From: Escherichia phage nomo
Sequence record: MN850578.1
Strand: one strand, 5' to 3'
Length of the DNA: 64,000 nucleotides
Shown here: piece by piece, positions 3,527 to 62,245 of the stretch
How the letters are laid out: each line of letters opens with the position of its first letter
Numbering within the stretch: the first letter of the stretch is position 1
The notes under the pieces: generated by a model
What the model saw: the letters and a program-made list of their open reading frames with translations, nothing else
Databases searched by the model: none
Told to the model about the DNA's origin: nothing
Translations under genes and position numbers: made by a program

Positions 3527-3555
3527 TTGACAACAGTGATGGGGCCTAATATAAT
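3527..3555 (+). promoter_or_regulatory. sigma70-type promoter (TTGACA-17-TATAAT)
   Basis: Perfect -35 ttgaca 3527-3532, 17-nt spacer, perfect -10 tataat 3550-3555, upstream of ORF 3587. Confidence 0.6.
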
Positions 3556-3586
3556 GGCCCTATCAAAACGAAAGGGGACCACAGCA

Positions 3587-8892: not shown

Positions 8893-9225
8893 ATGGTAAC
8901 ATTGGAAAGACGTAAAGCTATTGCCGCCACACTGGCAGACATCTTTTGGGATTGTAATTTAAAATCTACCCGAAATTGTGGTGCATCTGTAGATGTATTA
9001 TTCCCACGGCCTACTATTGTTGCAATGGGCAACCTGCTCGATGTGGTATATGGAGCATGGGACAAGGAAGGTGGATTCTATATCTGGCAACCTGACTACG
9101 GGACTTGGAAAGAGGTTAGTGGTTCTTCGGACTTCACTCCTGCAGTGGCTAAAATGGATGGCTGGAAAATCTATGTCGGTAACGACATGGAACTGAAAGG
9201 CGAAATTGTTTACTGGTTACCTTAA
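8893..9225 (+). CDS. hypothetical protein (110 aa)
   Basis: ORF in co-oriented array. Confidence 0.45.
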   Translation: MVTLERRKAIAATLADIFWDCNLKSTRNCGASVDVLFPRPTIVAMGNLLDVVYGAWDKEGGFYIWQPDYGTWKEVSGSSDFTPAVAKMDGWKIYVGNDMELKGEIVYWLP

Positions 9226-9246
9226 GAAAGTCCAGGAGATAAAGTT

Positions 9247-9492
9247 ATGAACAAAGGGTGGACATTTGTAGACGGCGTTAAAAACATGCCTCTAGGAAAG
9301 TATATTGTAGCCATGGCAGATGAGAATGGCAAGGTTGATTTCGGAGTTTGCGAGGTTGTTCTTGCAGGATCTGGTGACTATGCTCACAAAACTGGGATAA
9401 TTAACGGTCATTTCTACTTTGATTACAACCCTGTTGTGGCGTATATGGCTATGCCAGAGTTCGAGCTCCCAAAGGAAGGTGCAGATGTTTAA
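9247..9492 (+). CDS. hypothetical protein (81 aa)
   Basis: ORF with RBS caggag upstream. Confidence 0.45.
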   Translation: MNKGWTFVDGVKNMPLGKYIVAMADENGKVDFGVCEVVLAGSGDYAHKTGIINGHFYFDYNPVVAYMAMPEFELPKEGADV

Positions 9493-9682
9493 GCTTAAAT
9501 CTGCATGGAACATCGCTGTGGGGGACGAGATCCGTATCCCAGGTGGAAAGACCATTATGAAAATATCTCGTATCGAGTACGAAGGTGATCGTGTATTTCA
9601 TATCTTTGCAGAAGATGGTCGAGAAATTTATATACAGGCAGGCTCTCACATCTATATTCGTAAGAAAGGGGAGGACAAATGA
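9485..9682 (+). CDS. hypothetical protein (65 aa)
   Basis: ATG 9485 with RBS ggaaggtg; overlaps neighbours by a few nt. Confidence 0.4.
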   Translation: MFKLKSAWNIAVGDEIRIPGGKTIMKISRIEYEGDRVFHIFAEDGREIYIQAGSHIYIRKKGEDK

Positions 9683-10008
9683 CAGAGATCATCATTTCAA
9701 CTGCAGGGTATGTATTCCTGACAATCATTGCGCTGGCTATTCTGGTGGCGGTGTATGGATTTGTTATCCTTCCTATCCTTGAGACATTTAGTTTGTGTCG
9801 GTGTTGGAGAAAAGCTTACGGTCCACAACCATGGAAGGACTGGCCCCACCTGGTGCGCTTAGCGTTCTCTTATGCTTACGATCACTCCAGTAGTGCATGC
9901 ATAACCGGATACCACGCCAACAACTGGAGCTGGGAAGGGTTGAGGAAATGGAATGTTACAAAGACCATACCTCTGCGCATGTACAAACCTAAAAACAAAG
10001 ACAACTGA
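9679..10008 (+). CDS. hypothetical membrane protein (109 aa, N-terminal TM helix)
   Basis: RBS aaaggggagg; hydrophobic segment VFLTIIALAILVAVYGFVILPIL. Confidence 0.45.
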   Translation: MTEIIISTAGYVFLTIIALAILVAVYGFVILPILETFSLCRCWRKAYGPQPWKDWPHLVRLAFSYAYDHSSSACITGYHANNWSWEGLRKWNVTKTIPLRMYKPKNKDN

Positions 10009-10039
10009 TACTTGAAAATTCCTGGCATATCAAGTATAA

Positions 10040-10500
10040 GGGGGATTTCTAAAATGGATTTCCTCCTTTTGATATTTCACCGGGCTGGATATTTTAAAAT
10101 TCTTAGAAAATCAGAAAATGGATCGAAAACTAAAATGGATTTTTCAGAGTAGGCGCGACAAGCTGAATAACTCATCCTATCGTTTGCACCATATTCCAGG
10201 CCACCATTATAGATTTCCCACACATGCTAACCTCCCTCTACTAGAACTTCCTCCACTTACCCTTGACCTTCTATGGTAACAATCTAACCGCTATCTTGAA
10301 GTTGCGGTGCAGCTTTCCAGGTACTCGATCTACTTTTCATTTCAGGGCTTGGATTTTCTGAAAATTTTTCTCGATAAATTTCTCAGTACTCGATCTGTTT
10401 TTCGTCTTCTGAATCGGATTTTCTGGAAATCGTTCCGGCTCTCAACCTGAAATTTTTGGGGACGAAATCGATTTTTCGTTTTCAGAAATGGATTTTTAAA
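10040..10500. repeat. iteron-like direct repeat region (AAATGGATTT x4; ~50-bp units GTACTCGATCT...GGATTTTCTGRAAAT x2-3)
   Basis: Direct repeats read at 10051, 10117, 10133, 10487 and tandem units 10317-10367 / 10382-10432; no ORF. Confidence 0.6.
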
Positions 10501-10610
10501 ATTTCTATATGGGAATATTTTAGTGGATACTATTTTATAGTAAATTGTTACGGAGGGTAATTAGCGTGCTAATTAAATTTATTAAATGCGAGGAGTTCTC
10601 ATTTAGAATC

Positions 10611-10629
10611 TTGAATGATAATCATTCTC
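10611..10629 (+). promoter_or_regulatory. Fur-box-like operator 1
   Basis: ttgaatgataatcattctc: 15 of 16 core positions match Fur consensus AATGATAATCATTATC. Confidence 0.55.
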
Positions 10630-10642
10630 GTTTGCAGAATAA

Positions 10643-10682
10643 CGGGCAGGCCCGGTGATTGTCTCCCGGCCCCTGTTGCCCC
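10643..10682 (+). repeat. conserved GC-rich element copy 1 (GGCAGGCCYGGTGATTGTCTCCC...CCTGTTGCCC)
   Basis: Near-identical copy in reverse orientation at 20262-20300 and diverged copy at 10787-10810. Confidence 0.5.
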
Positions 10683-10746
10683 GGCTTGTTATTATAGTAT
10701 CACACAGGACAAAGAAAGCAAGGATTTTTTTTTGCATAAATTTTTA

Positions 10747-10765
10747 AATGATAATGATAACCGTT
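10747..10765 (+). promoter_or_regulatory. Fur-box-like operator 2
   Basis: aatgataatgataaccgtt: 11 of 12 match to GATAATGATAAT half of Fur consensus. Confidence 0.5.
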
Positions 10766-11024
10766 CTCATTTTATGCAGCGCTCATCCCTGGTGGTTGTC
10801 TCCCCCGTCACCGGTGCCTGCCGTCCTTTCGATAGGTATATTGTGCCACCTGTCGGGGCCGCTGTCAACACTTTTCAAAAAATTTTTCTAACCTGATGCG
10901 CTAACCGCTGCAACCTGGCGGGGCCAGCCTGGCAGGACCTAACTGACCAGGTGGGAGAGGGTGAAATCTTGCAAACCTGGTAGGCCCATGCTGTAGGGTA
11001 AACAATTGAAGAGGAGGTACAAAA

Positions 11025-11150
11025 ATGAAAGGTAATGCTACTCACCTGGGAAATGTAGTGATTAATGATACAGAAGCGCGGGAACATAAAGAAGAGTACG
11101 AAAAAATGGTGGTTAACCTGGCGGGGGGCGGCAGGTGGATTCTATCATAA
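11025..11150 (+). CDS. hypothetical micro-protein (41 aa)
   Basis: Strong RBS gaggagg 6 nt upstream of ATG; below ORF-track size cutoff. Confidence 0.3.
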   Translation: MKGNATHLGNVVINDTEAREHKEEYEKMVVNLAGGGRWILS

Positions 11151-11247
11151 AAATAATTTAAAATAATCGTTGACAACAAGGTTAATCATGGTATTATTAC
11201 CCTACAAGGTGAACAACACCGCACTAACCAGTAAAGAGGATAAATTT

Positions 11248-11445
11248 ATGAACGCATACGGGATCAAAGTACGTCGCAACACTCGCCAGGTGGTCACCGA
11301 TCAAATGGTTTGCCAGGTGGACGTAACCATCAACAACGGGCAAGGCCTTTATAAATTCCGTCGCGGTCAGAGCTATACCCGGCAACAGCTTAATCGTTGC
11401 GCCCTGACAAAAGGACAGATCAACCACTGGTTTAATAAAAAATAA
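11248..11445 (+). CDS. hypothetical protein (65 aa)
   Basis: Promoter ttgaca at 11171; RBS aagagga upstream of ATG 11248. Confidence 0.45.
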   Translation: MNAYGIKVRRNTRQVVTDQMVCQVDVTINNGQGLYKFRRGQSYTRQQLNRCALTKGQINHWFNKK

Positions 11446-11509
11446 GTATTGACATATAGTCCGACACCAAATACACTAAAAGCACAAAAGACACTAAGAG
11501 GATAAAATC

Positions 11510-11908
11510 ATGAAAACCACTACCTTTAATTTTGATAATGCGGACTTTTCTTTTTCTGATGTCAAGAACTACCGCCGTGATCGTGGATTTTACAAGGCTT
11601 ATAATCTGGTGGGCCTGGACGATGACAATAATTTGCACGAAGTAGCTGAGATCCGGTATTATGCCGCCGCCAGCGGGAACACTCACTACTGCGTGTTTTG
11701 GATTCACGACAACAAGAACAATAAGTACGGTTATACTGGCGGCAAGGCGAGCGGTCACGGTTACGATAAAGCTAACGCAGCACTTGAGAGCGCATTAAAT
11801 GCTATGGGGATCACTGCCGACGGCTGGATCTACGAAGAAGAGTTTTTGTCGGCACTTGCTGACCACCTGGGCTATAAAAAACACATTGTAACATGCGCCC
11901 ACGAATAA
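11510..11908 (+). CDS. hypothetical protein (132 aa)
   Basis: Promoter ttgaca at 11450; RBS taagagga. Confidence 0.5.
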   Translation: MKTTTFNFDNADFSFSDVKNYRRDRGFYKAYNLVGLDDDNNLHEVAEIRYYAAASGNTHYCVFWIHDNKNNKYGYTGGKASGHGYDKANAALESALNAMGITADGWIYEEEFLSALADHLGYKKHIVTCAHE

Positions 11909-11990
11909 AAATCATTGACACGCTGCAAAATTTAAGTAAACTAGACACAAAAGGCGGGAATGTTTCCCGCCAGCACAAAGGAAAAAGATC

Positions 11991-12386
11991 ATGAATAAGA
12001 ACGTACGCCGCATCATGAACGAACTGGCAAACGATGAAAAAATTATTGATATGCATTTGGTCAACATTTGCCGCCGTTGTGTAACATATAACAACCGCGC
12101 CGCAAAAGCGTGTGAGATGAACGCAAAAGGCACCTTAAAGCCCTTTCAGGTGGTTGTAAAATCTATAACTAGCGCAGCAGGCCAGGCGCAGGACCACAAC
12201 AACGAGAGCGCTAATATTGATCCGTCTTACGTAATGAAACGGATCCGGACTTGCAAGAATAAAGAGCAGGTATATAACGTCATAGATTGGCTGGACTCCC
12301 TGGGCGATGTGGTTTACAATAGGTTTTCTGCAGCTATCGAGATCCAGCTTGACAGATTGGACGGGAAAGTACTAAAAACTTATTGA
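11991..12386 (+). CDS. hypothetical protein (131 aa)
   Basis: Promoter ttgaca 11915; 5' stem-loop ggcgggaatgtttcccgcc; RBS aaaggaaaaag. Confidence 0.5.
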   Translation: MNKNVRRIMNELANDEKIIDMHLVNICRRCVTYNNRAAKACEMNAKGTLKPFQVVVKSITSAAGQAQDHNNESANIDPSYVMKRIRTCKNKEQVYNVIDWLDSLGDVVYNRFSAAIEIQLDRLDGKVLKTY

Positions 12387-12387
12387 G

Positions 12388-12434
12388 TTTATTTTTAGAT
12401 GGCCTTGACACCAGGGCCATCAATAAAGTAAACT
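12388..12434 (+). promoter_or_regulatory. repeated ~47-bp promoter/palindrome element, copy 1
   Basis: tttatttttagatggccTTGACAccagggccatcaataaagtaaac; inverted repeat gatggcc/ggccatc flanks -35. Confidence 0.5.
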
Positions 12435-12466
12435 AACCACAGTTGAGCGGAAAAGGAGGCTTAAAG

Positions 12467-12586
12467 ATGAGCACTACACGCCAGCACACAAAGGTAACCA
12501 TCATCGTTTGCATCATTGGGTACATCCTGGCGCAAATGTTGATGGGTAGCGCCAACGGTGTCGCAAAATTTTTCTTAAACTTTTAA
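12467..12586 (+). CDS. small hydrophobic peptide (39 aa, one predicted TM helix)
   Basis: RBS aaaaggagg; translation MSTTRQHTKVTIIVCIIGYILAQMLMGSANGVAKFFLNF. Confidence 0.3.
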   Translation: MSTTRQHTKVTIIVCIIGYILAQMLMGSANGVAKFFLNF

Positions 12587-12665
12587 TTGACAAGCTAACT
12601 TAAATCGATATAATAAGCACATAAACGGGAAAACTTCCCAGAACACACAAAAGGAGAAAAACACC

Positions 12666-13007
12666 ATGACTACTATGACCGCCTCAGAAAAAGCTATGCA
12701 GATCGCTGAACTGAAAAAACAGATCGCAGACCTTGAGAATAAGATCGATAACTTTGAAATCGACGAGGACAAGTACGACGAAAACTATGATGAATGGTTA
12801 GACGAGATCTACGGAGAAATTATGATCGGAAACATTTCTTTTCTTCCGTCGCGTATCCTCAAGGAGCTAGATCCTATCGCTTACCGCTGCGGATTTAGCG
12901 ACTACATCGACAGCCTGGATATTGAGGACGATGAAGAATACCAGGAATTACAGACAGAGTTAGAAGAAGCAAAAGAAGAGCTTGCGGAGCTGGAAGAAAA
13001 CGAGTAA
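12666..13007 (+). CDS. hypothetical acidic protein (113 aa)
   Basis: Promoter ttgaca 12587 with tataat; RBS aaaggag; highly acidic, coiled-coil-like. Confidence 0.5.
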   Translation: MTTMTASEKAMQIAELKKQIADLENKIDNFEIDEDKYDENYDEWLDEIYGEIMIGNISFLPSRILKELDPIAYRCGFSDYIDSLDIEDDEEYQELQTELEEAKEELAELEENE

Positions 13008-13009
13008 GC

Positions 13010-13054
13010 TTATTTTTAGATGGCCTTGACACCAGGGCCATCAATAAAGTAAAC
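13010..13054 (+). promoter_or_regulatory. repeated ~47-bp promoter/palindrome element, copy 2
   Basis: Identical to 12388-12434 over about 45 nt. Confidence 0.5.
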
Positions 13055-13096
13055 TTTATACTGTTAACACTGAACTAATGCATAGGAGTTAAAACC

Positions 13097-13342
13097 ATGG
13101 CAGCACTAATCACCAAATATTATGCCCCTACCAACACCAAAAGCGCCCGTATCATGGTAAAAGGCTTCGGACGTAAAAAGGTGTACACCTGGGATTATGC
13201 CTTAGACACGGAAGACAACTACACCAACGCAATGACCGATTTTATTAATGAACTAAATAAGCAGATCTTGACAAGTTATAAAGTGACTGATATTGCTTAT
13301 ATAGGTGAAGGCGGGATCTGTTTTGTAGGCATTGTGAAATAG
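13097..13342 (+). CDS. hypothetical protein (81 aa)
   Basis: ORF downstream of repeated promoter element; RBS ataggag. Confidence 0.5.
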   Translation: MAALITKYYAPTNTKSARIMVKGFGRKKVYTWDYALDTEDNYTNAMTDFINELNKQILTSYKVTDIAYIGEGGICFVGIVK

Positions 13343-13416
13343 TTATTTTTTCGGTGGTCCTGGCTGCAGGGCCATCTATAAAGATAATTTATCAACACCA
13401 TGAAAGGAGAAAGTAC

Positions 13417-13770
13417 ATGATCAGCGGGGCTAGTTTTATTATTGGCGCTATTGCTACGGCTTTAATTGTAAACAAGATCCAATCTAAAAACGAAAAAGAT
13501 AGCAACGCGCTCACAGAATACCCATTTTGGGTATTCAACGACAACGAAGACTACATAATCAAGTACAAAGATGAGAGAGGCGACCAGGTAACACCGCGAC
13601 CGATCCCAGCTTACAAGATGCAGGAAACACTATACCGCCTAAAGGCCGGAGGCGCAAAGATCGTAGACTTTTGGGGATATGATTGCAAGGATCAGGAGGT
13701 CATAAAACGTCGTATCCGGGCGATTCAGGCAAATATTGAAATTAGTAAAGGGGAAATTTATGAAAATTAA
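13417..13770 (+). CDS. hypothetical membrane-anchored protein (117 aa)
   Basis: RBS aaaggag upstream of ATG 13417; N-terminal hydrophobic helix. Confidence 0.45.
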   Translation: MISGASFIIGAIATALIVNKIQSKNEKDSNALTEYPFWVFNDNEDYIIKYKDERGDQVTPRPIPAYKMQETLYRLKAGGAKIVDFWGYDCKDQEVIKRRIRAIQANIEISKGEIYEN

Positions 13771-13957
13771 TTTCGAAAAAATTGTAAAGCGCCCCCACGA
13801 TTCCGAAGAGCTGCCGGAACGCCGCCAGCGTAACAATAAACTGAATAAACCGAAAAGGTTCGGGAAGATCTGGAGGAATCACTATGATCGCAAATTACCG
13901 GGCCTGCTTTTGGAACGTGAACGACAGGCGGAACGATACCGCCACAAAGGCAAATAA
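13760..13957 (+). CDS. hypothetical basic protein (65 aa)
   Basis: RBS aaagggga; Arg/Lys-rich translation. Confidence 0.35.
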   Translation: MKINFEKIVKRPHDSEELPERRQRNNKLNKPKRFGKIWRNHYDRKLPGLLLERERQAERYRHKGK

Positions 13958-13963
13958 CAACCA

Positions 13964-13994
13964 ACGCCCCGCCATTGTGCGGGGCTTTTTATTT
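13964..13994 (+). terminator. rho-independent terminator
   Basis: Hairpin gccccgccattgtgcggggc followed by tttttattt. Confidence 0.6.
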
Positions 13995-14127
13995 CTATCC
14001 TACGAATAGCGCCCCTGGTTGGCACCACAAACGCCACAAAAGCCCCTACCTATGCAATCCCCTTTCTTAGCCTGAAAACATCACCCAGGACCGTTTTATG
14101 GTGTTAAAAATATCTTTTATTTAAAGC

Positions 14128-14156
14128 TTGACACCTTGGAATCGCCTGGATATACT
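14128..14156 (+). promoter_or_regulatory. sigma70-type promoter (TTGACA-17-TATACT)
   Basis: ttgaca 14128-14133, tatact 14151-14156, upstream of ORF 14192. Confidence 0.55.
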
Positions 14157-14191
14157 AACCACATCAAAGCAAGAAGAAAGGAGTAAACGCC

Positions 14192-14452
14192 ATGCGTAAA
14201 TTAAAAAATTTTGATAAAGTCGATGTTGTCCTGAATAATTTTTACTACTGCAATAATAAGGCCGTTTGGTGGCGTGATAGTTCCACCGATAAAGTTAAAG
14301 CGCGCTTTCTCCAGGGGCACTGGCAAGGCCGCCCAGTGATTAAGATCCGGGGGCAATTGGTAGCGTTTAAAAATTGCCGCCGTGTTGATGACGTTGAAGA
14401 GATTCTAAACATTTTACGCCACAATAATTTAAAAAATAGTGTTGACAAGTAA
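14192..14452 (+). CDS. hypothetical protein (86 aa)
   Basis: RBS aaaggag upstream. Confidence 0.5.
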   Translation: MRKLKNFDKVDVVLNNFYYCNNKAVWWRDSSTDKVKARFLQGHWQGRPVIKIRGQLVAFKNCRRVDDVEEILNILRHNNLKNSVDK

Positions 14453-14526
14453 GCCTCAATAAGTATACTTAAACACACAGGCGGGAAAACTTCCCGCCAC
14501 TAACAAAGAAAATAGGAGAAAATATC

Positions 14527-15150
14527 ATGACCACCGTTAACATTACCGCAGGTTACAATTTATCTTTCGACGTGCTGACCGACGAACAAAAAGAAAAAGC
14601 CGTTGAAATGGTCCGCGAAAGAGAAGAACACAGCGGGGATAACTTTTTTGCAGAAAGTGTAATTGAATACTATAAAGAATATGTTTTTCCAGAGTATGGC
14701 CTTGAAGATACCGAAGTACATTGGTCAGGCTTTTGGTGCCAGGGTGACGGCGCGTCAATCAGTGCTGAAAACGTGGATTTAGAAAAATTTTTGCGTAAAG
14801 TAAAGGCCCTGACCAAGTTCCGATCAATTCGTCACTTGTTCGGCACAATGCACGATGGCGAGTTATCAGCCAGTGTTGAGCGTGATCCATATAGCCGCTA
14901 TAGTCACGAAAACACTGTAAGCGGATACATTGATACCACCTGGCTAGATCTGACCGCCAAACAAGAAAACAAAGTGGAAGACTTGGAAGAGCTGATCACC
15001 GAGACGGTACGGGAGCTATCCCGCAAGGTTTACGTAGACCTGGAGGAGGCCTATCTTGAACAGTTTACTACCGAAAACCTGATCGGCCTTATTGAGGCCA
15101 ATGATTGGCGGTTTGATGTGGATGAATATGGCGAGATGACTTTTTCATAA
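14527..15150 (+). CDS. hypothetical protein (207 aa)
   Basis: Promoter ttgaca 14442; 5' stem-loop ggcgggaaaacttcccgcc; RBS aataggag. Confidence 0.5.
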   Translation: MTTVNITAGYNLSFDVLTDEQKEKAVEMVREREEHSGDNFFAESVIEYYKEYVFPEYGLEDTEVHWSGFWCQGDGASISAENVDLEKFLRKVKALTKFRSIRHLFGTMHDGELSASVERDPYSRYSHENTVSGYIDTTWLDLTAKQENKVEDLEELITETVRELSRKVYVDLEEAYLEQFTTENLIGLIEANDWRFDVDEYGEMTFS

Positions 15151-15239
15151 ATAAAGTGTTGCAATAACCTAAAAACCTGCTATATTAAAACTCAAGGGGG
15201 CAAGACGTTTGCCCCACACAAAACAAAGAGGAAAACATT

Positions 15240-15620
15240 ATGAAAAACACTACCAAGGCTATTGACACCGTTATGTTTAACCTGGTTACATTCCGTGAAG
15301 ATATGAAAGATCTTCCACGTGAAACAGTGTGCGATCACATTGAAAACTATCGCAAACTAATCAAAGAGTTGCCCCTAAAACGTGACCAGTATGCGGCTAA
15401 CGCTATGCTCAACGCCATGATCAAAAAGATGATCCAGTGTGATTTAACCCTGGCCTATGACTATGCGGGTGGTCGTTTTGCAGTATACAATCAGCCCGTG
15501 CCCGGTATGGGCACCACCGAAGAATTGCACGCGCTCAATCTAAAACAAGACGTATGGGATAACATGCCCCGCGTGGTGGTGTGGGCAGAAAGCGGAAAGA
15601 TTTACGGCGATAATTTTTAA
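15240..15620 (+). CDS. hypothetical protein (126 aa)
   Basis: 5' stem-loop ggggcaagacgtttgcccc; RBS aaagagga. Confidence 0.5.
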   Translation: MKNTTKAIDTVMFNLVTFREDMKDLPRETVCDHIENYRKLIKELPLKRDQYAANAMLNAMIKKMIQCDLTLAYDYAGGRFAVYNQPVPGMGTTEELHALNLKQDVWDNMPRVVVWAESGKIYGDNF

Positions 15621-15684
15621 TCAGGTAACAGGCGGCATATTTGCCGCCTTATTGTTAAACAGAACTGCAAAAGAGGTACATAGA

Positions 15685-16056
15685 ATGGAATTTATTATTT
15701 TGGCTGTAGTAGTTGCCTTGTTCAACGCCTGGATCGCTGGCAAGATGGGTAGATCCGCCTTTTTATGGTTTATTATATCTATTTTCCTGGGGGTGGTTGC
15801 AACTATTGTACTTGTTATCCTTGCAATTGTTGACAAGGGGAATAATAGAAAGGGTAAAGTATTTTCAGACCTGTACGACGCTCAAACGTTTGTCAACGCC
15901 TATTATAGTGATCTTCCAGTCTCCCTACGCTGCAGCCTGGCACAACAAGTTTTCGATGAGGCTAAAACCAGAGATCAAGCCCATGAGATATGTTTAACTG
16001 AGGCGGATCGCCTATTTGAGAGGAATAGAAAATATGTGGGCCAACCGTTTAAATAA
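15685..16056 (+). CDS. hypothetical membrane protein (123 aa, two predicted TM helices)
   Basis: RBS aaagagg upstream of ATG 15685; hydrophobic helices. Confidence 0.45.
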   Translation: MEFIILAVVVALFNAWIAGKMGRSAFLWFIISIFLGVVATIVLVILAIVDKGNNRKGKVFSDLYDAQTFVNAYYSDLPVSLRCSLAQQVFDEAKTRDQAHEICLTEADRLFERNRKYVGQPFK

Positions 16057-16541
16057 TGCCACGTTAATTAATCCCTTTAGTGAAGATTTGAAGCCAGCCG
16101 CCTGGCGTGATGGATTCAATAACGAACGCTTTATTTTCAAGCCTGATCTTGAGGAATTTTATAACAATGGATCGAACAACGACAGAGATAATTTTTCTTG
16201 TGGTGTGCGTAGTGATGGTACTCCTGGGGGCCATTGTAAACCACGTCGCTACTAACAGGGGGAAAGGGGGAGACGATGACACCCAAGGATAAGCCCCGCA
16301 CCGATAAGGCGCGCCGTGTTATGGTATGGCTTGAGATCATCGCCCTTGAAATATTGTTAGGGGTAGGGATGTACTTTATCGCTGTAAGTAACTAAGAACG
16401 GCCCCCCGATCATGGGGGCCTATCTTTAAAAAAAAAAAAAATTCTTCCGGGGTGTTGCAATCCGGTCCGGAATGTGGATAATAACAATCAACGGGGAGAC
16501 ACTCCCCACCGCATAGACAAAGTTCCAAAAGGAGAAACAAA

Positions 16542-16742
16542 ATGAGCAACAATATCCGCGTTATTAACTTCAAAAAAGAAGAAAAAATTGCCGTGCTGAT
16601 TGACGGTCAAGAAATCTTTAAAGGTGATTATGAAGATCATCAAACGGCGATTAGTATCACTCGCGTGATTGGTTACCATAATTTTTACCCTCAAGGCGCT
16701 GAGGCAGCAGTAAAACGAATTAAAGAGATTGTAGGCCTGTAA
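16542..16742 (+). CDS. hypothetical protein (66 aa)
   Basis: Promoter ttgcaa-17-taataa; RBS aaaaggag. Confidence 0.5.
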   Translation: MSNNIRVINFKKEEKIAVLIDGQEIFKGDYEDHQTAISITRVIGYHNFYPQGAEAAVKRIKEIVGL

Positions 16743-16743
16743 A

Positions 16744-16790
16744 ATTTATTTTTAGATGGCCTTGACTCCAGGGCCATCAATAAAGTAAAT
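16744..16790 (+). promoter_or_regulatory. repeated ~47-bp promoter/palindrome element, copy 3
   Basis: tttatttttagatggccttgactccagggccatcaataaagtaaat; one mismatch in -35. Confidence 0.5.
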
Positions 16791-16833
16791 TTAAACCCTG
16801 TTAAAATAATCAGTGCAAAAAGGAGTAATGATC

Positions 16834-17133
16834 ATGTTTATCCAGGCTAATAATCTTTATTTCTTTGATGGTCAGATCGTAGACGGCGTGGAGGTGGAAA
16901 TCACCGGGTGCCCTGGCGGTCAGGTTATGACTTTTCGGAATAATGCCTTTGATGATTCTCATATCGTTATGAGAATGGAAGTTAGTAAGCTGGATGACAA
17001 GAAAACACTTATCGACTATTCCGTCAAAGATCATCCAGACTACCACATGATCTATGGTGATTTGTGCATTGTTGACCGTGACAAGGTGGGCGGCATTGTG
17101 ATCGCTATTGTGAACGATGTTTTCTCAAACTAA
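16834..17133 (+). CDS. hypothetical protein (99 aa)
   Basis: RBS aaaaaggag about 8 nt upstream of ATG 16834. Confidence 0.45.
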   Translation: MFIQANNLYFFDGQIVDGVEVEITGCPGGQVMTFRNNAFDDSHIVMRMEVSKLDDKKTLIDYSVKDHPDYHMIYGDLCIVDRDKVGGIVIAIVNDVFSN

Positions 17134-17150
17134 TTTCAGCAGGTGATTTT

Positions 17151-17501
17151 ATGAAAGTAAAACTATATTACCTTAATGAGCTTAACCCCCTTGCCCAGGT
17201 CCGCGCCCTGGCTAATACCTTGATTTGTGAGAAATCTGTATATTGTGTTGAGCTTAACGCCATGCGTGAACGTCTCAAAGGTGGTTACTTTGACATCCAT
17301 GCTGCAATCAACGGCCTGAATATAGAATTTATCCGCTTACGTAACAGCCGCCAGAATCTGGCAAGAATGGAACAAGATCCGGCCCACCTTCGTAAGCTGG
17401 TTATTGAAAATCATCTGATGTTTAATGCCGATGGTGATTATTACCATTTTCACCGTAAACGCTGGTACCGTGGCGGCAATACAGGCAAGAATGCAAAATA
17501 A
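17151..17501 (+). CDS. hypothetical protein (116 aa)
   Basis: ORF with RBS caggtg upstream; hairpins follow the stop. Confidence 0.5.
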   Translation: MKVKLYYLNELNPLAQVRALANTLICEKSVYCVELNAMRERLKGGYFDIHAAINGLNIEFIRLRNSRQNLARMEQDPAHLRKLVIENHLMFNADGDYYHFHRKRWYRGGNTGKNAK

Positions 17502-17702
17502 GGCCCCAGGCAGGGCCTGCAGCGATATAATCACATAAAGGCTATGCGGTTGCATGGCCTTTATTATTTTAGCGTTACAGCGGCCCCAAGGCGCTTAAAA
17601 AATTTTTAAAGAAGTACTTGCATCAAGTCCTACAATATGGATAATAGGACGTGTCAGGGGGGCGGCCCCCAATCATTAACCGGATAGATAGGAGTTAAAA
17701 TC

Positions 17703-17987
17703 ATGGCTATTGTCACCGTTGGCGATGTAGTGGAAATGGAAGCAAAATACTTAAAAGCGGGTATGCATATCCTACGGAATGATCAAGAATTGTTATTAAC
17801 GATGGTAGACTATAATCCCGGCCAGGATTATCCAAGCATCGACTACTTTTTTGAGTATGTTGATGAAGAATTGAAAGAGGATGAGGCTTATCAGGGTGAA
17901 TTCTGCAATTTCTTTTGCCCTGATGAGGTTGTAAAAGTTATCTATCAACCTGGAGTACCTTTCCCGCTGCACGCTATCAATAAATAA
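17703..17987 (+). CDS. hypothetical protein (94 aa)
   Basis: Promoter ttgcat 17615; 5' hairpin gggggcggccccc; RBS taggagt. Confidence 0.5.
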   Translation: MAIVTVGDVVEMEAKYLKAGMHILRNDQELLLTMVDYNPGQDYPSIDYFFEYVDEELKEDEAYQGEFCNFFCPDEVVKVIYQPGVPFPLHAINK

Positions 17988-18041
17988 ACCTGGCGGGGCC
18001 GAAAAGGCCCCAATTATGAAAATAAAGAGAGGTAAATCATC

Positions 18042-18275
18042 ATGATGGAACAAATTAAACGCGCTGAGGCTATTAATGGCAATGTGATCTATTTTGTCAG
18101 CAAAAACGAAAAAGGCGTACCATATGCGGCGGTAATAGTACAACCTGACGGCGATTATTGGTTTACTGTATACGGATCTTATTCTTTCGGGCGTCCGGTT
18201 CATGATAGAATTTTGAAAGTAGCAAATCCGACCGGGAAAAATATCACAGCAGAAAAATTTTTTGAAAATAGTTGA
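18042..18275 (+). CDS. hypothetical protein (77 aa)
   Basis: 5' hairpin ggggccgaaaaggcccc; RBS agagagg. Confidence 0.5.
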   Translation: MMEQIKRAEAINGNVIYFVSKNEKGVPYAAVIVQPDGDYWFTVYGSYSFGRPVHDRILKVANPTGKNITAEKFFENS

Positions 18276-18351
18276 CATGACCATATAAGACTGTAATATA
18301 TAAATCAAAGGGGGGCAACAAGCCCCACCAACCACAAAGAGGATAAAAATC

Positions 18352-18531
18352 ATGGCTATTATTGCAAAGACTGAGATCGTAGGCTTAGATTCTATTCTCC
18401 TCGCATATGAGGAAGCTATAGAAATGTATGTGGTTTCCTATGGTGAATATATCCGTGAATATAAATCTATTGATCTAGCTTTTGAATGTTATATTCGCCA
18501 GGTCAATAAAGCATATGATGATTATCGTTAA
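18352..18531 (+). CDS. hypothetical protein (59 aa)
   Basis: Promoter ttgaca 18272; 5' hairpin; RBS aaagagga; below ORF-track cutoff. Confidence 0.4.
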   Translation: MAIIAKTEIVGLDSILLAYEEAIEMYVVSYGEYIREYKSIDLAFECYIRQVNKAYDDYR

Positions 18532-18613
18532 AATAGTTTGACAACAGTCAACAATCTGGTAAAGTGTACTACATAGCGCGGGAATACTTCCCGCCATTAA
18601 TGAGGGTAATTTA

Positions 18614-18751
18614 ATGAAAACTTTCAACGCAACAGCCTCGACAATTGGTTATATTATTACAGTACAAGCCGTGGATCTGGTAGCAGCAGCAAACAAGATT
18701 AAAAAGATGATTCCGCCAGGTAGTGAATTTTCCGTTTGGGAAGTAAAATAA
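18614..18751 (+). CDS. hypothetical micro-protein (45 aa)
   Basis: Promoter ttgaca 18538; 5' hairpin gcgggaatacttcccgc; RBS tgagggt. Confidence 0.3.
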   Translation: MKTFNATASTIGYIITVQAVDLVAAANKIKKMIPPGSEFSVWEVK

Positions 18752-18940
18752 ATCTTGACAATAATTTATTACTTGATAGACTGTATTTCGTAGTGCGGGG
18801 CAATAAGGCAACGCCCATTAATGAGGGTAGAATCATGTTAGAGAAAATTTTCACGGTTGTAGTAGTTGGCCTGGCATTATCGGTTGGATGGGTTGCAACT
18901 ATGGCTAACATGATCCTATCTTCCCACGGTATCGGTTAAA

Positions 18941-19165
18941 GTGAATCAAATGATCACGAATAAAACAGGTAAAACGGAATTCTTGCGCGGCTTGCAGGTC
19001 GGCAAGCCTGAGATCTGGCATTGCACTAAAACACCACGTGACGAAATGAAAGACTTCACCGCCACGCTGCAACGGGTAAAGATATCCATCACGCAGAAAA
19101 AGGCCTTGATAGTGGTGGAAGGTGAGATCCCTCAAACCGTTGTTATAGTTGAGCGTACAGCATAG
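18941..19165 (+). CDS. hypothetical protein (74 aa); start may be ATG 18950
   Basis: ORF in array; start codon ambiguous. Confidence 0.4.
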   Translation: MNQMITNKTGKTEFLRGLQVGKPEIWHCTKTPRDEMKDFTATLQRVKISITQKKALIVVEGEIPQTVVIVERTA

Positions 19166-19256
19166 TTTAATTTATACCGATACCCGAAAATTAACCAACA
19201 AAGCATAAACAGGCGGTTACCGCCGCCTTAAACGTAGCAGAAAGAGGATAGACACA

Positions 19257-19541
19257 ATGAAAAAGATGATCGCAGTGGTTGCCCTGGTTGTTGGACTTAA
19301 TGCGCCTGTAATGGCTAAAGAGCTGGCAAAAGAGGTTAATCTAACGGATATCCATGCCGTCAATCAAATCGGGGTTACTTATCGCTTATGCCTTGCCGCT
19401 AAAACTTTTAATGACGGTACAACAGAGTACTACGGATTCGAGGGTATCCGGTGCGGTGAGCTTGCTCGCGACCTTAAGGAAGATCCAGACCTGGAGGATC
19501 TACCCATAACCGTGAACGGTAAAGCTTACTTTAACCGTTAA
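19257..19541 (+). CDS. hypothetical secreted/periplasmic protein (94 aa) with N-terminal signal peptide
   Basis: RBS aagagga; translation starts MKKMIAVVALVVGLNAPVMA (signal-peptide-like, AxA cleavage motif). Confidence 0.5.
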   Translation: MKKMIAVVALVVGLNAPVMAKELAKEVNLTDIHAVNQIGVTYRLCLAAKTFNDGTTEYYGFEGIRCGELARDLKEDPDLEDLPITVNGKAYFNR

Positions 19542-19690
19542 CCGTGAAAAAGATAATCATTACCTTGGGGATTGTGGCGGGATCGCTGGCGCTCTTTCCC
19601 CTTATGGTTAGATATGTGCTGATCAGTATTGTCCTGGTGGTCAGTGATCTACTAGAAACGGTTGGCACCTTGTTTTAAAGAGCGATAAAA

Positions 19691-19882
19691 ATGAATGTTG
19701 AACAAGTTAGAAAGGTATTGGCGGTACTGCGTTATCATAATCATTGCAAGGTGAAGAATGATCCTGATTATCTTGATTCATCCCTTGAAGAGGATACACT
19801 ACAAGCCATAAGCAACATGCAAGAATTGCTTAAGCGTATGACAGAGAAAAACCGACCGGACTACATAGGGGGTAAAATATGA
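19691..19882 (+). CDS. hypothetical protein (63 aa)
   Basis: ORF in array. Confidence 0.4.
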   Translation: MNVEQVRKVLAVLRYHNHCKVKNDPDYLDSSLEEDTLQAISNMQELLKRMTEKNRPDYIGGKI

Positions 19883-20190
19883 TCGCTATTACGCCAACCG
19901 TTTTAGATTGGTATCGGCAACGCATAGCGCCTCCGCTGGCTATCTTCAAAGATGCGGAAGCAAAACAACGCCGGATCTCAATACATGAGATCATCAACCT
20001 TAACGCTGGAGGCACACCATACCGCCCAGGACCTGGCCGTGAGATGGACAATACGTTAGCGATCCTGAAGATACGCCGTAAACGGTCCTCCCTTACGCTG
20101 GACTCATTACACACAATGCAGCCTCCGTTCCAGGTGACCGGGAAACGGATCGCCAGGTCCTGGACAAAGGCCAATGATCGGACCGTATAA
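19879..20190 (+). CDS. hypothetical protein (103 aa)
   Basis: ATGA overlap with upstream ORF. Confidence 0.4.
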   Translation: MIAITPTVLDWYRQRIAPPLAIFKDAEAKQRRISIHEIINLNAGGTPYRPGPGREMDNTLAILKIRRKRSSLTLDSLHTMQPPFQVTGKRIARSWTKANDRTV

Positions 20191-20261
20191 ATAAAAGTGT
20201 TTTGGTACTGATTTTGGGGTTGACTTGTTCGGCCCCTTTTGCTATTCTTATTAAACGGGCG

Positions 20262-20300
20262 GCACTTGGGAACAGGGGGAGACAATCACCAGGCCTGCCT
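20262..20300 (-). repeat. conserved GC-rich element copy (reverse orientation) matching 10643-10682
   Basis: Reverse complement reads ggcaggcctggtgattgtctccccctgttccc. Confidence 0.5.
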
Positions 20301-20407
20301 GTCATATAAGAACTATAAAAACCGTTGACATCTGCCATGGGGTGAGGTAACATTTATCTTGAAGGGGCAAAAGTGCCCACACAACAACCAGAAGAGAGGA
20401 AAACATT

Positions 20408-20680
20408 ATGTCAAGCTGGATTAATCAAGAAGTCGAATCACGTTTTAATGCTATTTGGGATCTCATCGAAAAAGAGGACGGAACATCAAGCCCTTATCTC
20501 AATAATCTTGAATTCCATTTCGTGGAAGCGATGAACGCAGAACATGATCACGAAGGTGGTGCGGATGAGTTCGCTAAAGGGTATGGCTTCAACAATGCCA
20601 ACGAAATGATCGAGGCGGTTGTACTCCAGGCTGAGGAAGATTATCAATTAAAAACGCTTGAATTCTGCCGCCGTAAGTAA
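20408..20680 (+). CDS. hypothetical acidic protein (90 aa)
   Basis: Promoter ttgaca 20325 - 17 - taacat; 5' hairpin gggcaaaagtgccc; RBS agagagga. Confidence 0.5.
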   Translation: MSSWINQEVESRFNAIWDLIEKEDGTSSPYLNNLEFHFVEAMNAEHDHEGGADEFAKGYGFNNANEMIEAVVLQAEEDYQLKTLEFCRRK

Positions 20681-20742
20681 TAAGATAATGACACGGGCCA
20701 AAAGGCCCACTAAACAAAAACCACATAAAGAGGAAAAACATC

Positions 20743-21006
20743 ATGAAACGTCTTGACCAGCTCAAACTAGTTCAATATATGGCTTATCGTGTTCTGGAAG
20801 TCCAGAAAGGTAGCAAAAAAGAGGTTTGCGAGAAAGCTTATAAGATCTTTACCCGCAAAAAAGATGACTGGATGCTACGCCAGACCAAAAAGGCTGACAT
20901 CTTGGGGTACCTGGAAGAAGAGATCCGACTTGAAGAACAAGAAGAGATCCGCCGTAGTGAGGCAGATTATCAGGCAGCTTGGGAAAACTGGATGAGCAAC
21001 AAATAA
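20743..21006 (+). CDS. hypothetical protein (87 aa)
   Basis: 5' hairpin gggccaaaaggccc; RBS aaagagga. Confidence 0.5.
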   Translation: MKRLDQLKLVQYMAYRVLEVQKGSKKEVCEKAYKIFTRKKDDWMLRQTKKADILGYLEEEIRLEEQEEIRRSEADYQAAWENWMSNK

Positions 21007-21025
21007 TACAACAAGATGAACGGTC

Positions 21026-21050
21026 AGGGGCTTAAAGCCCCTTTCTTTTT
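21026..21050 (+). terminator. rho-independent terminator ending the + strand gene block
   Basis: Hairpin aggggcttaaagcccct followed by ttcttttt. Confidence 0.65.
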
Positions 21051-21059
21051 GTCTTCTCT

Positions 21060-23500
21060 TTTCCTACCATAAACGGCCCTACCTGGCAAGTGGAATAATT
21101 GACGAGCCATCAATCCCACACACTGTACAAATATACATGGAAAATAACTATTGCATAATTTTTCATTGTGTGGTAGCAAGGCCATTTTTACACGTTTTTC
21201 CTTCCAAAATTGCACGTAATGCAGCATTTGCACAAAATTTAACCTGATGCATATCTTCAATAGCTTGTCAACAACTAAAAATCTTTATAAGTCATACACT
21301 TACATAACTACAAAAACGTTTTCTACGTGAAAAATCGAGTATAACTATAGCCGCCAGATCTCAGAATTTACGTACGCTCGCCATTCTATAGCCTGCTAAG
21401 CATTTATTCCAACCATAGAATAACTGAATAGTCAATACCTGCATAAAATAATTATTCGTGTAAACTGCATAACATAAATCGGCCCAGGTGTCAACATTTT
21501 TCGTAAACAGTCTGGAATTGTCACGTTAGGTTACCATAAGTAGAGAAATCTTTAGTCGTCTAATGTTTACTGTACGTTACTATATTAACTGAAATCATTA
21601 GATGACTAATAGAAAGATAAGAAATAATTAACAATACAATTATTTTATCTGTAACAATAAGGCAACTATGCAAACGAATGGCATGGCGCGACGGAGTCGC
21701 GACATAATATAAAAGCAGTAACCATCACCCCCGTGATAGTTTGTCTGCAAACTATTAATCAGATCATAGTTGCCTTGTATTTAGTTAATCATGACATAAC
21801 AAGCAAGGCAACTATAGATCTGCTAATAGTTGCCCTGCTTTTATATTATGTCATGCTAATTATAATCAGTGCGATTATTGTCATGTATAATTATTGTCAT
21901 GCAAACGAATGGCATGGCTGATTATCGGTGTGTAAACAGTCAATCATGTAAATGGTTAGCATGTGAACAATCAGGAATGTAAACAATCCAGTGTGTAAAC
22001 TAATAGGTGTGTAAAAGTGTCATGTTGTGTCAGTTAGGTCACATTATGTCAGACAAGTTTTTCTCCTCTTTGTCAAGTGCTGCATGAAAAATTTACAAGC
22101 TTGTATGGTAGCATTTTTGCGGCCCTGTTTACATTCAGGAGTGTATGTATAATCCTTGTTGTGTGGGCGTTTAGACGTCTGGACGGTCAGAAGTCTGCAG
22201 GTCAATATCTAATCTATTGGCTGCTAACTATATCCCCCACAAATAATAAGAAATATAATTGTTATGTGCGTAAACAGTAACCCATGTTATCAATCCCTGT
22301 ATGTATCGCCAGTTGTGCGCATAATGGGTATTATGTTAAATTGCCCGTAATGATAACTATTCTCACAATGATAGGTATTCTCATTCACCCCCACAAGATA
22401 GGTTGCAAATGTTGTGCCACTGTGTGAACGGCCTCACCTATTAATTTGCCTCACTGCCTCGATATTTGAGAATTGTTATAAGAATGAGAAGTATTCCCAT
22501 TCCGTCCGCCTGGCAGCACTCCAGTCGCTACGGCTCCTGACAGGGCAGCACTCCTGTAGGTCAGGTCAAAATCGTGGTAGAACTGGACCTGTTCGGATAT
22601 TTCTGGCTGACTCTTCAGGTCTGTGTGGGAAAAGCCAACCCCTCCGGCGGGGCAGGGGATATCTGCAGGAAAATTGCAGGTCAATTAAAAATTTACGTGG
22701 TGTATGAAGCGCTCTTCAGGCAAGGCATGTATTAGAGGATGAAACCCTCTTCAGGCAATGATATTTGTGGGTGGGATATTTGCTGGAAAGCCAGATATGA
22801 CGGGACTCCCGGCGGGGCAGGGGTAGTACAGACAGGGAAAATATGAGGATGTAATTGGGGAAATTGATCAGACAGGTAGAGTATGGAATATGTTACAGGT
22901 ATGTTAAATATGGAGGTTGAATATCTGTAGGATTTGTGTGTAAAATCAAAGACTTAAGGGGTGTTGTGGTATTTTCTATAAATAATTCAAGTTTAATAGG
23001 CAATATTTGTCTCTATCCGCTTTGTGTGGTAAACAGATTCAGATGAAATTGGTTTACAAGTGTATACATAATATACAAATTAAAGATACAAGAAACCCCC
23101 CTCCCCCCTCGGCTACCATTCACCTTTTCCTCTGACTGGTACTTAAACACTTATTCAGACTCTTCAGGTTATCACCCATATATCATATGGCAGTGACTGG
23201 TGTCCTCCGGCCCCTCTTTCGTCACCCGTCCGCTTCGCCATGCTAATGCCATAGCCAATGGTTCGGTTGTTCACCCTGTTCACTCAGGTGTATCTCCATA
23301 CCCCTTCAAACCGAAGAGAACAGAAAACCCGAATTACTCGGTAAAAGAAAAGAGAAGAACTTAATTTTATCAGGATAGGCAAGAATGTCAAGGCATGACT
23401 GCTCACTAAACAAGCAAACAGTCATGTGTGGAAGGTAAGTGATTGTGGTGGTGGGAAATTTAGTTGAAAGATGTGTTATAGGTGCGCTTCCAGCACTTTA
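21060..23500. other. 2.5-kb non-coding convergence region with several repeat families
   Basis: No convincing ORF; repeats gcaaacgaatggcatggc (x2), tgtgtaaac-like array 21928-22016, ctcttcagg...ccggcggggcagggg units 22606-22840. Confidence 0.55.
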
Positions 23501-27451: not shown

Positions 27452-27527
27452 TCGGTCTCCTGTCTTGTTAAGATGAAGGTATTATTTCACACAGGGTTGG
27501 CGTTGTCAACACCTGTGTGCAAGAAAA

Positions 27528-61690: not shown

Positions 61691-62245
61691 ATGAAATACT
61701 TTGTAACAAGCGACACACACTTTCTCCACCAGCGGGTCATGGAGTTTGATTCATGTCAAAAACACAGATCTCAGTATGATCACAATCTTGACAGTATGAA
61801 TGCTGGAATCATCGCCGAGTGGAACTCTGTTGTGTCACCTGCAGACACTGTGTTCCACTTGGGAGATATTGCGTGCACTAATGATAAGAATATCAACAAC
61901 TTACTTCCAGATATTCTAAATATGTTGAACGGACATATTATTCTTGTTCGTGGCAACCATGACACAAGGACGACTGTCAGAATTATGAAAGAGTTCGGTC
62001 ATGAGGTTGTAGATTATTACGAGCTTCGCCACAACAAGAATTTGATCTGTATGAGCCATTACCAGTTTGCAAAGTGGAACAGAAAGCCTCACGGATCAGT
62101 CCAACTGTTCGGTCATGCTCACGGAACCACACAACAGTTGTTTGGCAGGCAGCTTGATGTCGGTTGGGATGTGTGGGGGAGACTCTTACCATTAGAAGAG
62201 GCATACCGTATTGCAATGAGTTTTGATATTGACAGCAGGGAGTAA
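61691..62245 (+). CDS. calcineurin-like metallophosphoesterase
   Basis: SDTHF, HLGDIA, RGNHD motifs of metallophosphoesterases; RBS gagga upstream of ATG 61691. Confidence 0.6.
   Translation: MKYFVTSDTHFLHQRVMEFDSCQKHRSQYDHNLDSMNAGIIAEWNSVVSPADTVFHLGDIACTNDKNINNLLPDILNMLNGHIILVRGNHDTRTTVRIMKEFGHEVVDYYELRHNKNLICMSHYQFAKWNRKPHGSVQLFGHAHGTTQQLFGRQLDVGWDVWGRLLPLEEAYRIAMSFDIDSRE

Follow-up and report, generated by a model that had tools for sequence, protein, structure and literature searches.

Genomic context and repeat family

The window analysed here, a stretch of 64,000 nucleotides from Escherichia phage nomo (sequence record MN850578.1), belongs to an rV5-like coliphage (Vequintavirus) and covers its early region, in which a 49-nt element recurs behind the stop codons of small genes. 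All positions are those of the window. Over positions 12000-17000, identity to Escherichia phage HdK5 reaches 99.8%, and this region is found at 90-99% identity in more than 100 Vequintavirus records. The part from 1 to 21000 holds small + strand open reading frames (ORFs) without known function, together with many sigma-70-like promoters. In rV5, this block (genes 10-1-238-164) was described as a single transcriptional unit under host-type promoters (rV5 paper, PMC3606486).

An earlier note, made from the letters of the window, had reported three copies and a diverged one of a ~47-bp element, each directly after a stop codon and about 35 nt before the next start. A repeat search confirmed this family with a unit of 49 nt and copies at 12386-12434, 13007-13055 (98% identity), 16743-16791 (94%) and 13341-13389 (73%), so that three copies share 94-100% identity and the fourth is the diverged one; they are referred to below as copy 1, copy 2, copy 4 and the diverged copy, and their places in related genomes as numbered sites. 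Copy 1 (12386-12434, +) has as its first base the last base of the TGA stop codon (12384-12386) of ORF 11991-12386, with the next ATG at 12467. Copy 2 (13007-13055, +) likewise begins with the last base of the TAA stop codon (13005-13007) of ORF 12666-13007 and is followed by an ATG at 13097. The diverged copy (13341-13389, +) overlaps the TAG stop codon (13340-13342) of ORF 13097-13342, with the next ATG at 13417, and copy 4 (16743-16791, +) starts just after a TAA stop codon (16740-16742), with the next ATG at 16834. Every copy therefore starts on or just after a stop codon, and the following ATG, provided with a good Shine-Dalgarno (SD) sequence, lies 27-42 nt past the end of the element. 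The layout is TTTATTTTT, then the core, then SD and ATG 27-42 nt downstream. Exact instances of the core, GATGGCCTTGACACCAGGGCCATC (24 nt), lie at 12398 and 13019, and one with a single mismatch lies at 16755; none turned up in 100 dinucleotide-preserving shuffles. A covariance model built from the four copies found no further copy in the 64-kb window.

Fold and covariation

The four copies share one fold as + strand RNA. Its lower stem is A/U-rich and 10 bp long; above it come an internal loop of 2+3 nt and a G/C-rich upper stem, likewise of 10 bp (GAUGGCCUUG/CAGGGCCAUC, including one U·G pair), which is closed by a tetraloop. In copy 1, the lower stem is formed by 12386-12395/12425-12434 and the upper stem by 12398-12407/12412-12421, with the loop ACAC at 12408-12411 and a minimum free energy (MFE) of -25.1 kcal/mol (z score -7.8). 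The four copies together range from -21 to -25 kcal/mol with z scores of -5.2 to -7.8, and no shuffled sequence was as stable. The inverted repeat GATGGCC/GGCCATC, which the earlier note had placed around a -35 hexamer, is indeed present in three copies; it is, however, not merely a 7-bp repeat, since the whole 49 nt form an interrupted 20-bp hairpin, nor does it simply bracket the hexamer, as TTGACA has its TTG at the top of the 5' arm and its ACA in the loop.

The diverged copy has the loop GCTG, with CTGGCT instead of the -35 hexamer. All pairs of the 20-bp fold are kept in it, two changes in the upper stem leading to G·U pairs and U-A pairs of the lower stem being swapped to A-U; its half-sites differ at 2/10 positions and pair fully as RNA. 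The + strand of this copy folds with -23.5 kcal/mol (z score -5.2), and its - strand is unfolded (-8.1 kcal/mol, z score -0.8).

For comparison, element sites were gathered from 17 relatives, two of them IMG/VR contigs and the others GenBank records, yielding 67 copies, 36 of them distinct. Pair counts are based on the first 51 copies (30 distinct), which come from the window and 13 relatives, i.e. 14 phage sequences; given the close relationship of these sequences, alignment cells cannot be counted as independent events, and the alignment had been made to fit the model. On the structure named above, 98.5% of the pair cells are paired, and sliding the 3' partners by 1-3 columns as a control lowered pairing to 33-57%. 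Four pairs of the lower stem have changed on both sides (G-C/A-U, U-A/C-G, U-A/A-U and A-U/U-A), and the changes in the upper stem are all one-sided, with pairing preserved via G·U. Read as + strand, the cells comprise 517 Watson-Crick pairs, 74 G·U pairs and 9 mismatches, as opposed to 517, 7 and 76 on the - strand, so that 74 of the 83 non-Watson-Crick cells are G·U on the + strand. The mean MFE is -23.3 kcal/mol on the + strand versus -14.6 kcal/mol on the - strand. The fold is thus conserved in a strand-specific manner, and the direction of this asymmetry together with the behaviour of the diverged class is hard to explain save by selection on the sense transcript. We consider it highly probable that the RNA hairpin is the selected feature.

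With DNA parameters, the main copies fold on both strands (-12.3 and -10.7 kcal/mol), and the diverged copy folds weakly (z scores -2.8 and -1.8). A DNA cruciform is possible for the main copies and weak for the diverged one, and was rejected as an explanation of the family. A scan of 9000-21500 against Rfam (E <= 10) gave no credible family for the element; the best matches over its copies were rhtB (23.1 bits, gathering threshold 55) and snoZ194 (23.2 bits, gathering threshold 50), with E > 3.

To assess constraint across relatives, each site was aligned from 11-14 genomes together with 110 nt of flank to its left and right. At sites 2-4, 22 of 166 element columns are variable versus 182 of 674 in the mostly coding flanks, and what varies within the element is mainly the outermost pairs, the internal loop and, in the apical loop, the final two bases. 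The element is under purifying selection. Individual sites can nevertheless decay, as in phage Aya, where site 1 reads TTTACT and site 4 reads TTGATT.

Cassette loss between copies

Copies 1 and 2 bound a cassette of 621 bp (12435-13055, +), which includes one element copy and contains an ORF of 39 amino acids (12467-12586), a consensus promoter with a 5' hairpin (12587-12614) and an ORF of 113 amino acids (12666-13007). When 12300-13500 was used as a blastn query, the matches in phages magaca and ECP26 fell into two pieces that together account for only 52-53% of it, and in magaca the gene ending at copy 1 directly precedes the gene that follows copy 2. Precise loss of the 621 bp is found in magaca, ECP26, ECP32 and IMG/VR contig L039, and in all four the deletion junction is a single chimeric element with the left flank of copy 1 and the right flank of copy 2, within which the crossover point cannot be placed exactly. 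The flanks in magaca are 100% and 99.6% identical to the cassette-bearing window; the left flank of L039 is 98% identical to phage isim, and that of ECP26 96-96.5% identical to rV5 and WM, all of which keep the cassette. These identities place the deletions in three backgrounds, so that the same 621-bp loss arose or spread repeatedly.

The earlier note had offered a recombination hotspot for cassette exchange as one reading of the element and had proposed a search for it at cassette boundaries of related phages. The genomes directly support this reading: the element is present at such boundaries, cassette-loss variants occur, and the exact loss with its chimeric element is seen in four genomes of three flank lineages. 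The repeats very probably mediate the loss of the cassette: by homologous recombination between direct repeats of ~50 bp that are nearly identical, intervening genes are deleted (or could be inserted) and one intact element is left behind, as the natural variants show.

Mosaic flanks were observed in phage Gotham (L067), whose left flank is 97% identical to the window and whose right flank is 96% identical to rV5 (L070); judged from these identities, this indicates putative recombination breakpoints somewhere in or near the element-bounded segment. The 81-residue protein encoded between copy 2 and the diverged copy (13097-13342) has relatives of 35-46% identity in 9g-like coliphages and in Pseudomonas and Klebsiella phages, and a 207-residue protein (14527-15150) has relatives of 55-60% identity in 121Q-like jumbo phages. 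In tblastn searches, relatives of these two proteins beyond Vequintavirus were found only in unrelated phage groups; these early genes move between unrelated phage families.

Promoter-like sequences in the element

In copies 1 and 2, the hexamer TTGACA is made up of the three topmost bases of the upper 5' arm and three bases of the loop, and TAAACT lies in the lower 3' arm; in copy 1 this promoter-like segment spans 12405-12434 (+), with TTGACA at 12405-12410 and TAAACT at 12429-12434, and in copy 2 the hexamers are at 13026-13031 and 13050-13055. Copy 4 has TTGACT at 16762-16767 and TAAATT at 16786-16791. The spacer is 18 nt in each case, and the match to the consensus is 10/12 for copies 1 and 2 and 9/12 for copy 4. 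The -10 context AAGTAAACTA is identical at the neighbouring promoter 11915-11942, which is promoter P194 of the rV5 paper. Among 28 distinct copies of the main class, TTGA of the -35 hexamer is nearly invariant and the C almost so, with A, T, G or C as the sixth base. The orientation of the element and its distance to SD and ATG fit a promoter, and the GenBank record of Gotham marks sites 2 and 4 as predicted promoters (PhagePromoter). A T-run is found upstream, where an UP-like tract would sit, and may be of that kind, which we regard as a lead only.

The sigma-70 promoters listed for rV5 (PMC3606486, Table S4) resemble these sequences in their TTGACA or TTGACT hexamers, in -10 hexamers of the type TAAACT/TAAATT with A2 and T6, in an A/T-rich upstream stretch, and in orientation and distance to SD and ATG, in addition to the context shared with P194. 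They differ in having spacers of 15-17 nt as compared to 18 nt in the element, whose promoter is moreover wholly self-complementary and absent from their list. From the hexamers and their context, a sigma-70 promoter is plausible in three copies, with none in the diverged copy, and we judge it fairly probable that the three main copies act as promoters. Transcription from them would start just 3' of the hairpin, so that only read-through transcripts would carry it.

Relation to promoter-early stem-loops and T7 RNase III sites

Promoter-early stem-loops (PeSLs) are known from the T4-like phages RB49/phi1, T4/PST and KVP40/nt-1 (PMC2839356; PMC4122927). By definition, they begin with the stop codon of the preceding gene, within AT-rich sequence, and combine a sigma-70 promoter with a stem-loop before ending in SD plus ATG (Arbiol et al. 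2010, PMC2839356), the stem-loop lying between the promoter boxes or over the -35 or -10 box, with G-T pairs in the stems. They are concentrated among small ORFs, at places where close relatives differ by indels, and their promoter and terminator activity as well as mini-circle recombination have been demonstrated experimentally (PMC2839356). PeSLs were later extended to other T4-like phages, with degraded copies being described (Comeau et al. 2014, PMC4122927).

This sequence layout, a stem-loop over the promoter-like boxes and the indels are all found at the element. As with PeSLs, it is a repeated intergenic module among small early ORFs (non-essential ones in the PeSL case) with the same layout of stop codon, sigma-70-type -35/-10 hexamers, stem-loop, SD and ATG; recombination between neighbouring copies likewise makes close relatives differ by the precise loss or gain of the intervening ORFs, and 'degraded' copies occur here, too. 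The differences are considerable: its phages are Vequintavirinae and not T4-like; there are 3-4 copies per genome rather than dozens, and no general overlap of hairpins and promoters, unlike the dense landscape of RB49; it is a 20-bp interrupted hairpin enclosing the whole putative promoter as opposed to a short G(n)-loop-C(n) stem, and has no terminator-like T-run after the stem; and it lacks sequence similarity to the RB49 elements, the search with the element having matched Vequintavirus records only. In the searchable literature we found no description of the element in rV5-like phages, and a PeSL-type element has not previously been described there for this group.

The early intergenic regions R0.3, R0.5, R1, R1.1 and R1.3 of phage T7 were folded in the same manner and form a repeated family after stop codons, with a 9-10-bp upper stem containing G·U and a loop of 4-5 nt; R0.3 and R0.5, and in part R1.3, also fold with a bubble and a lower stem of 5-8 bp, which are absent from the folds of R1 and R1.1. 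Substrates of RNase III extend over about two helical turns, with an internal loop leading to cleavage of one strand such that a protective 3' hairpin is left, and with a minimum distance of 11 bp between tetraloop and cut (PMC1540722). The element offers two helical turns as 10 + 10 bp in all four copies, and in both sequence classes its 2+3-nt internal loop lies right below the 10-bp upper stem. In our own alignment to uR1.1, positions 1-3 of the proximal box fit (G-C, U-A, A-U), position 4 is a G-C pair, and the distal box is not UA/UG.

Both the T7 sites and the element are dispersed hairpins of 40-50 nt just past stop codons in polycistronic early mRNA made by the host RNA polymerase, with a lower stem, a G·U-containing upper stem of 9-10 bp, a loop of 4-5 nt and, ~10-11 bp away from this loop, an internal loop, amounting to about two helical turns. 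They share no sequence homology, and the internal loop of the element is smaller (2+3 versus about 4+5 nt), its lower stem longer and almost purely A/U. No sigma-70 promoter lies inside the T7 hairpins, and cleavage of the element would be a prediction from its geometry. By this analogy, RNase III is a tentative candidate for the enzyme that would act on the hairpin.

Proposed role and alternatives

On balance, we consider it somewhat probable that the element is a PeSL-type composite boundary, combining hairpin, early promoter and recombination substrate, between small early-gene cassettes of Vequintavirus. An upstream early transcript reading through it would fold its 49 nt into the 20-bp interrupted hairpin right after the stop codon, and the hairpin would then set or protect the 3' end of the upstream message, most likely by RNase III-type processing at the internal loop, or else by blocking exonucleases or acting as an attenuator; lacking a U-tract, it does not qualify as a canonical intrinsic terminator. 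As DNA, three of the four copies would be a sigma-70 promoter, with a T-rich upstream stretch, TTGACA, 18 nt and TAAACT, as read from the letters only, and new transcripts would begin just 3' of the hairpin, providing re-initiation for the downstream gene.

Several observations weigh against this interpretation. The 18-nt spacer is suboptimal, and spacers of 19-20 nt occur in orthologues (L069 and L071 at site 4, L003 at site 1). The diverged copy has no -35 hexamer, meaning that the promoter is not common to all copies. The 33 promoters and 20 terminators given by the rV5 authors omit the element sites, and transcript 5'/3' end data for any Vequintavirus were not found in the searchable literature. 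An overlap of promoter and hairpin is not general in the window: the mean z score was -0.50 for 59 promoter-like sites and -0.20 for 150 random windows (Mann-Whitney p = 0.12), with the two consensus-matching copies as extreme outliers. Copies are few, at only 3-4 per genome, and in Gotham a 5-nt deletion takes out the 3' arm at site 1, a decay which implies that single copies are dispensable. Regarding RNase III, a G-C pair stands at the site of the catalytic antideterminant, and the box preferences are matched only in part.

Among the alternatives, a pure RNA processing or stability element, serving polycistronic early mRNA as an RNase III site or 3' stabiliser much as in the T7 early region, with hexamers that are inactive remnants or coincidence, is possible but rather unlikely. 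It would account for the hairpin being the sole feature common to all four copies including the diverged one, for a geometry that fits both the T7 sites folded here and the published requirements of RNase III, for the several orthologous copies that keep the fold despite promoter-incompatible spacers or -35 changes, and for the absence of the element sites from the rV5 promoter list. It leaves unaccounted for the occurrence of a perfect TTGACA with a TAnnnT -10 hexamer spaced by 16-18 nt, properly oriented and placed relative to SD and ATG, for which a rough estimate of chance is ~1e-3 for a 49-nt element, as well as the -10 context shared with a neighbouring canonical promoter and a pattern of loop conservation that suits constraint on a -35 hexamer; the sequence determinants of RNase III are, in addition, only partly matched. 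A plain internal early promoter, with a palindrome that is incidental or acts at the DNA level only (cruciform, supercoil sensitivity) and has no role as RNA, is improbable: the 10/12 match to the consensus, the PhagePromoter predictions in the Gotham record and the folding of the main copies as DNA on both strands speak in its favour, but the diverged copy without a -35 hexamer keeps all pairs through G·U and compensatory changes and folds only weakly as DNA, the strand asymmetry is strong (74 G·U versus 7), and the other strong promoters of the region are without such a hairpin.

The proposal of the earlier note that the palindrome could be an operator for a dimeric regulator, here taken as a DNA-binding protein that would occlude the -35 hexamer, is not supported and very improbable. 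The perfect 7-bp inverted repeat around the -35 hexamer in three copies suits it, but the half-sites are not conserved symmetrically, their departures being transitions that give G·U on the + strand; the 74 G·U pairs of the + strand correspond to 76 mismatches on the - strand, and the diverged copy folds as + RNA only. Complementarity furthermore spans 20 bp, including a covarying A/U-rich lower stem for which an operator has no need, and no candidate regulator was identified, none having been searched for. For a Rho-independent terminator one may cite the record of phage Murica, which labels the orthologues of the diverged copy and of copy 4 as 45-nt terminators, and the PeSL stem-loops of RB49, which terminated transcription in a reporter. 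Yet neither the upper stem (followed by AAUAAAG) nor the full hairpin (AACCAC, UUAUAC, UAUCAA or UAAACC) has a U-tract behind it, a terminator scan of 9000-21500 yielded 25 sites (13966, 15630, 16400 and 17535 among them) but none of the four copies, and on the + strand the T-run precedes the hairpin, so that neither strand reads hairpin and then U; there is only a small chance that the element is of this kind.

Within the composite boundary, a specific form in which the same 49 nt are a sigma-70 early promoter as DNA and an RNase III-type hairpin as read-through RNA, with the 3' edge as the start site, is speculative and in our estimate doubtful. If it were true, cleavage would leave upstream messages with a protective hairpin at their end, at the very point where new transcripts start, which would make the element a self-insulating, recombination-portable cassette boundary in a non-T4 phage, and PeSL 'terminators' in general may then act by processing and not by termination. 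The T7-like geometry offers a concrete alternative to 'terminator' for PeSL-type stem-loops, and the strand-specific covariation speaks for selection of the stem-loop as RNA, a point that the original PeSL papers did not establish. PeSLs have been proposed as the engine of cassette shuffling in plastic regions of T4-like phages and described only there; the element would extend this design to rV5-like phages, which are widely isolated as therapeutic and biocontrol candidates, with the natural loss of exactly one cassette in three separate backgrounds as a clean example of the mechanism beyond one phage group.

Distribution of the element

A search with a 54-nt version of the element matched 120 phage records, all Vequintavirus by sequence and typically at 3 places each, which agrees with the conservation in related phages that the earlier note had expected. 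No match was found in 5,426 E. coli genomes searched for a host origin. Annotation in GenBank is inconsistent, the element being given as a terminator in Murica, as a promoter in Gotham, and not at all in rV5 and HdK5. The exact pattern CAGGGCCATCNATAAA occurs at 54 loci in IMG/VR, where two contigs are real Vequintavirus and the rest are chance matches. Distant IMG/VR relatives collected via the 113-residue protein (L004-L010) gave no match to the covariance model, their repeats being unrelated motifs, and a tblastn survey of sister genera with the flanking 81- and 207-residue proteins revealed no comparable orthologous intergenic site outside the genus.

PLSDB gave a single match, the Escherichia coli record CP057073.1 of 137,565 bp, which is classed there as a non-mobilizable plasmid and has three copies of the element; it is likely a Vequintavirus-sized phage genome deposited as a plasmid. 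A further 17 matching records are labelled 'Campylobacter phage' (e.g. MG065635, MG065654 and MG065672), with Campylobacter jejuni as the stated host, and are 93-95% identical to E. coli Vequintavirus across the region. These MG0656xx records are probably mislabelled or contaminant assemblies. In the case of 'Campylobacter phage' C15, the record starts right at the element, as would be expected if the assembly had broken at the repeat.

Other promoter-hairpin features in the window

A second repeated family is found at 11915-11971, 12587-12641, 14442-14498 and 18538-18595 (+). It consists of four strong sigma-70-like promoters with a conserved hairpin, GCGGGAA(N3)TTCCCGC(C), ~12 nt past the -10 hexamer, followed by SD and ATG. 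At this distance the hairpin would sit at the very 5' end of the transcript, and it is possibly a 5' stabiliser or a representative of the PeSL subclass 'stem-loop downstream of the -10'.

A few single sites combine promoter-like sequences and stems in other ways. At 27509 (-), the orthologue of rV5 P150, the -35 hexamer lies in the loop of an 8-bp stem, CACACAGG...CCTGTGTG; at 62229 (+), a stem lies between -35 and -10; at 3527-3565 (+), TATAAT is in the loop of a 10-bp stem; and at 20216-20248 (+), GGGGTTGACTTGTTCGGCCCC with a T-run overlaps a promoter of the form TTGACT-17-TATTCT. A sliding-window MFE scan for other long hairpins was uninformative, with too many matches in coding regions.

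The genome map in the rV5 paper has a 'non-coding' box. In the window, the segment ~10285-10620 comprises ~330 bp that are without an annotated gene in HdK5. This segment holds an imperfect direct repeat of 57 nt (10314-10370 and 10379-10435, 72% identity) and a 16-pair A/T-rich hairpin at 10452-10489.

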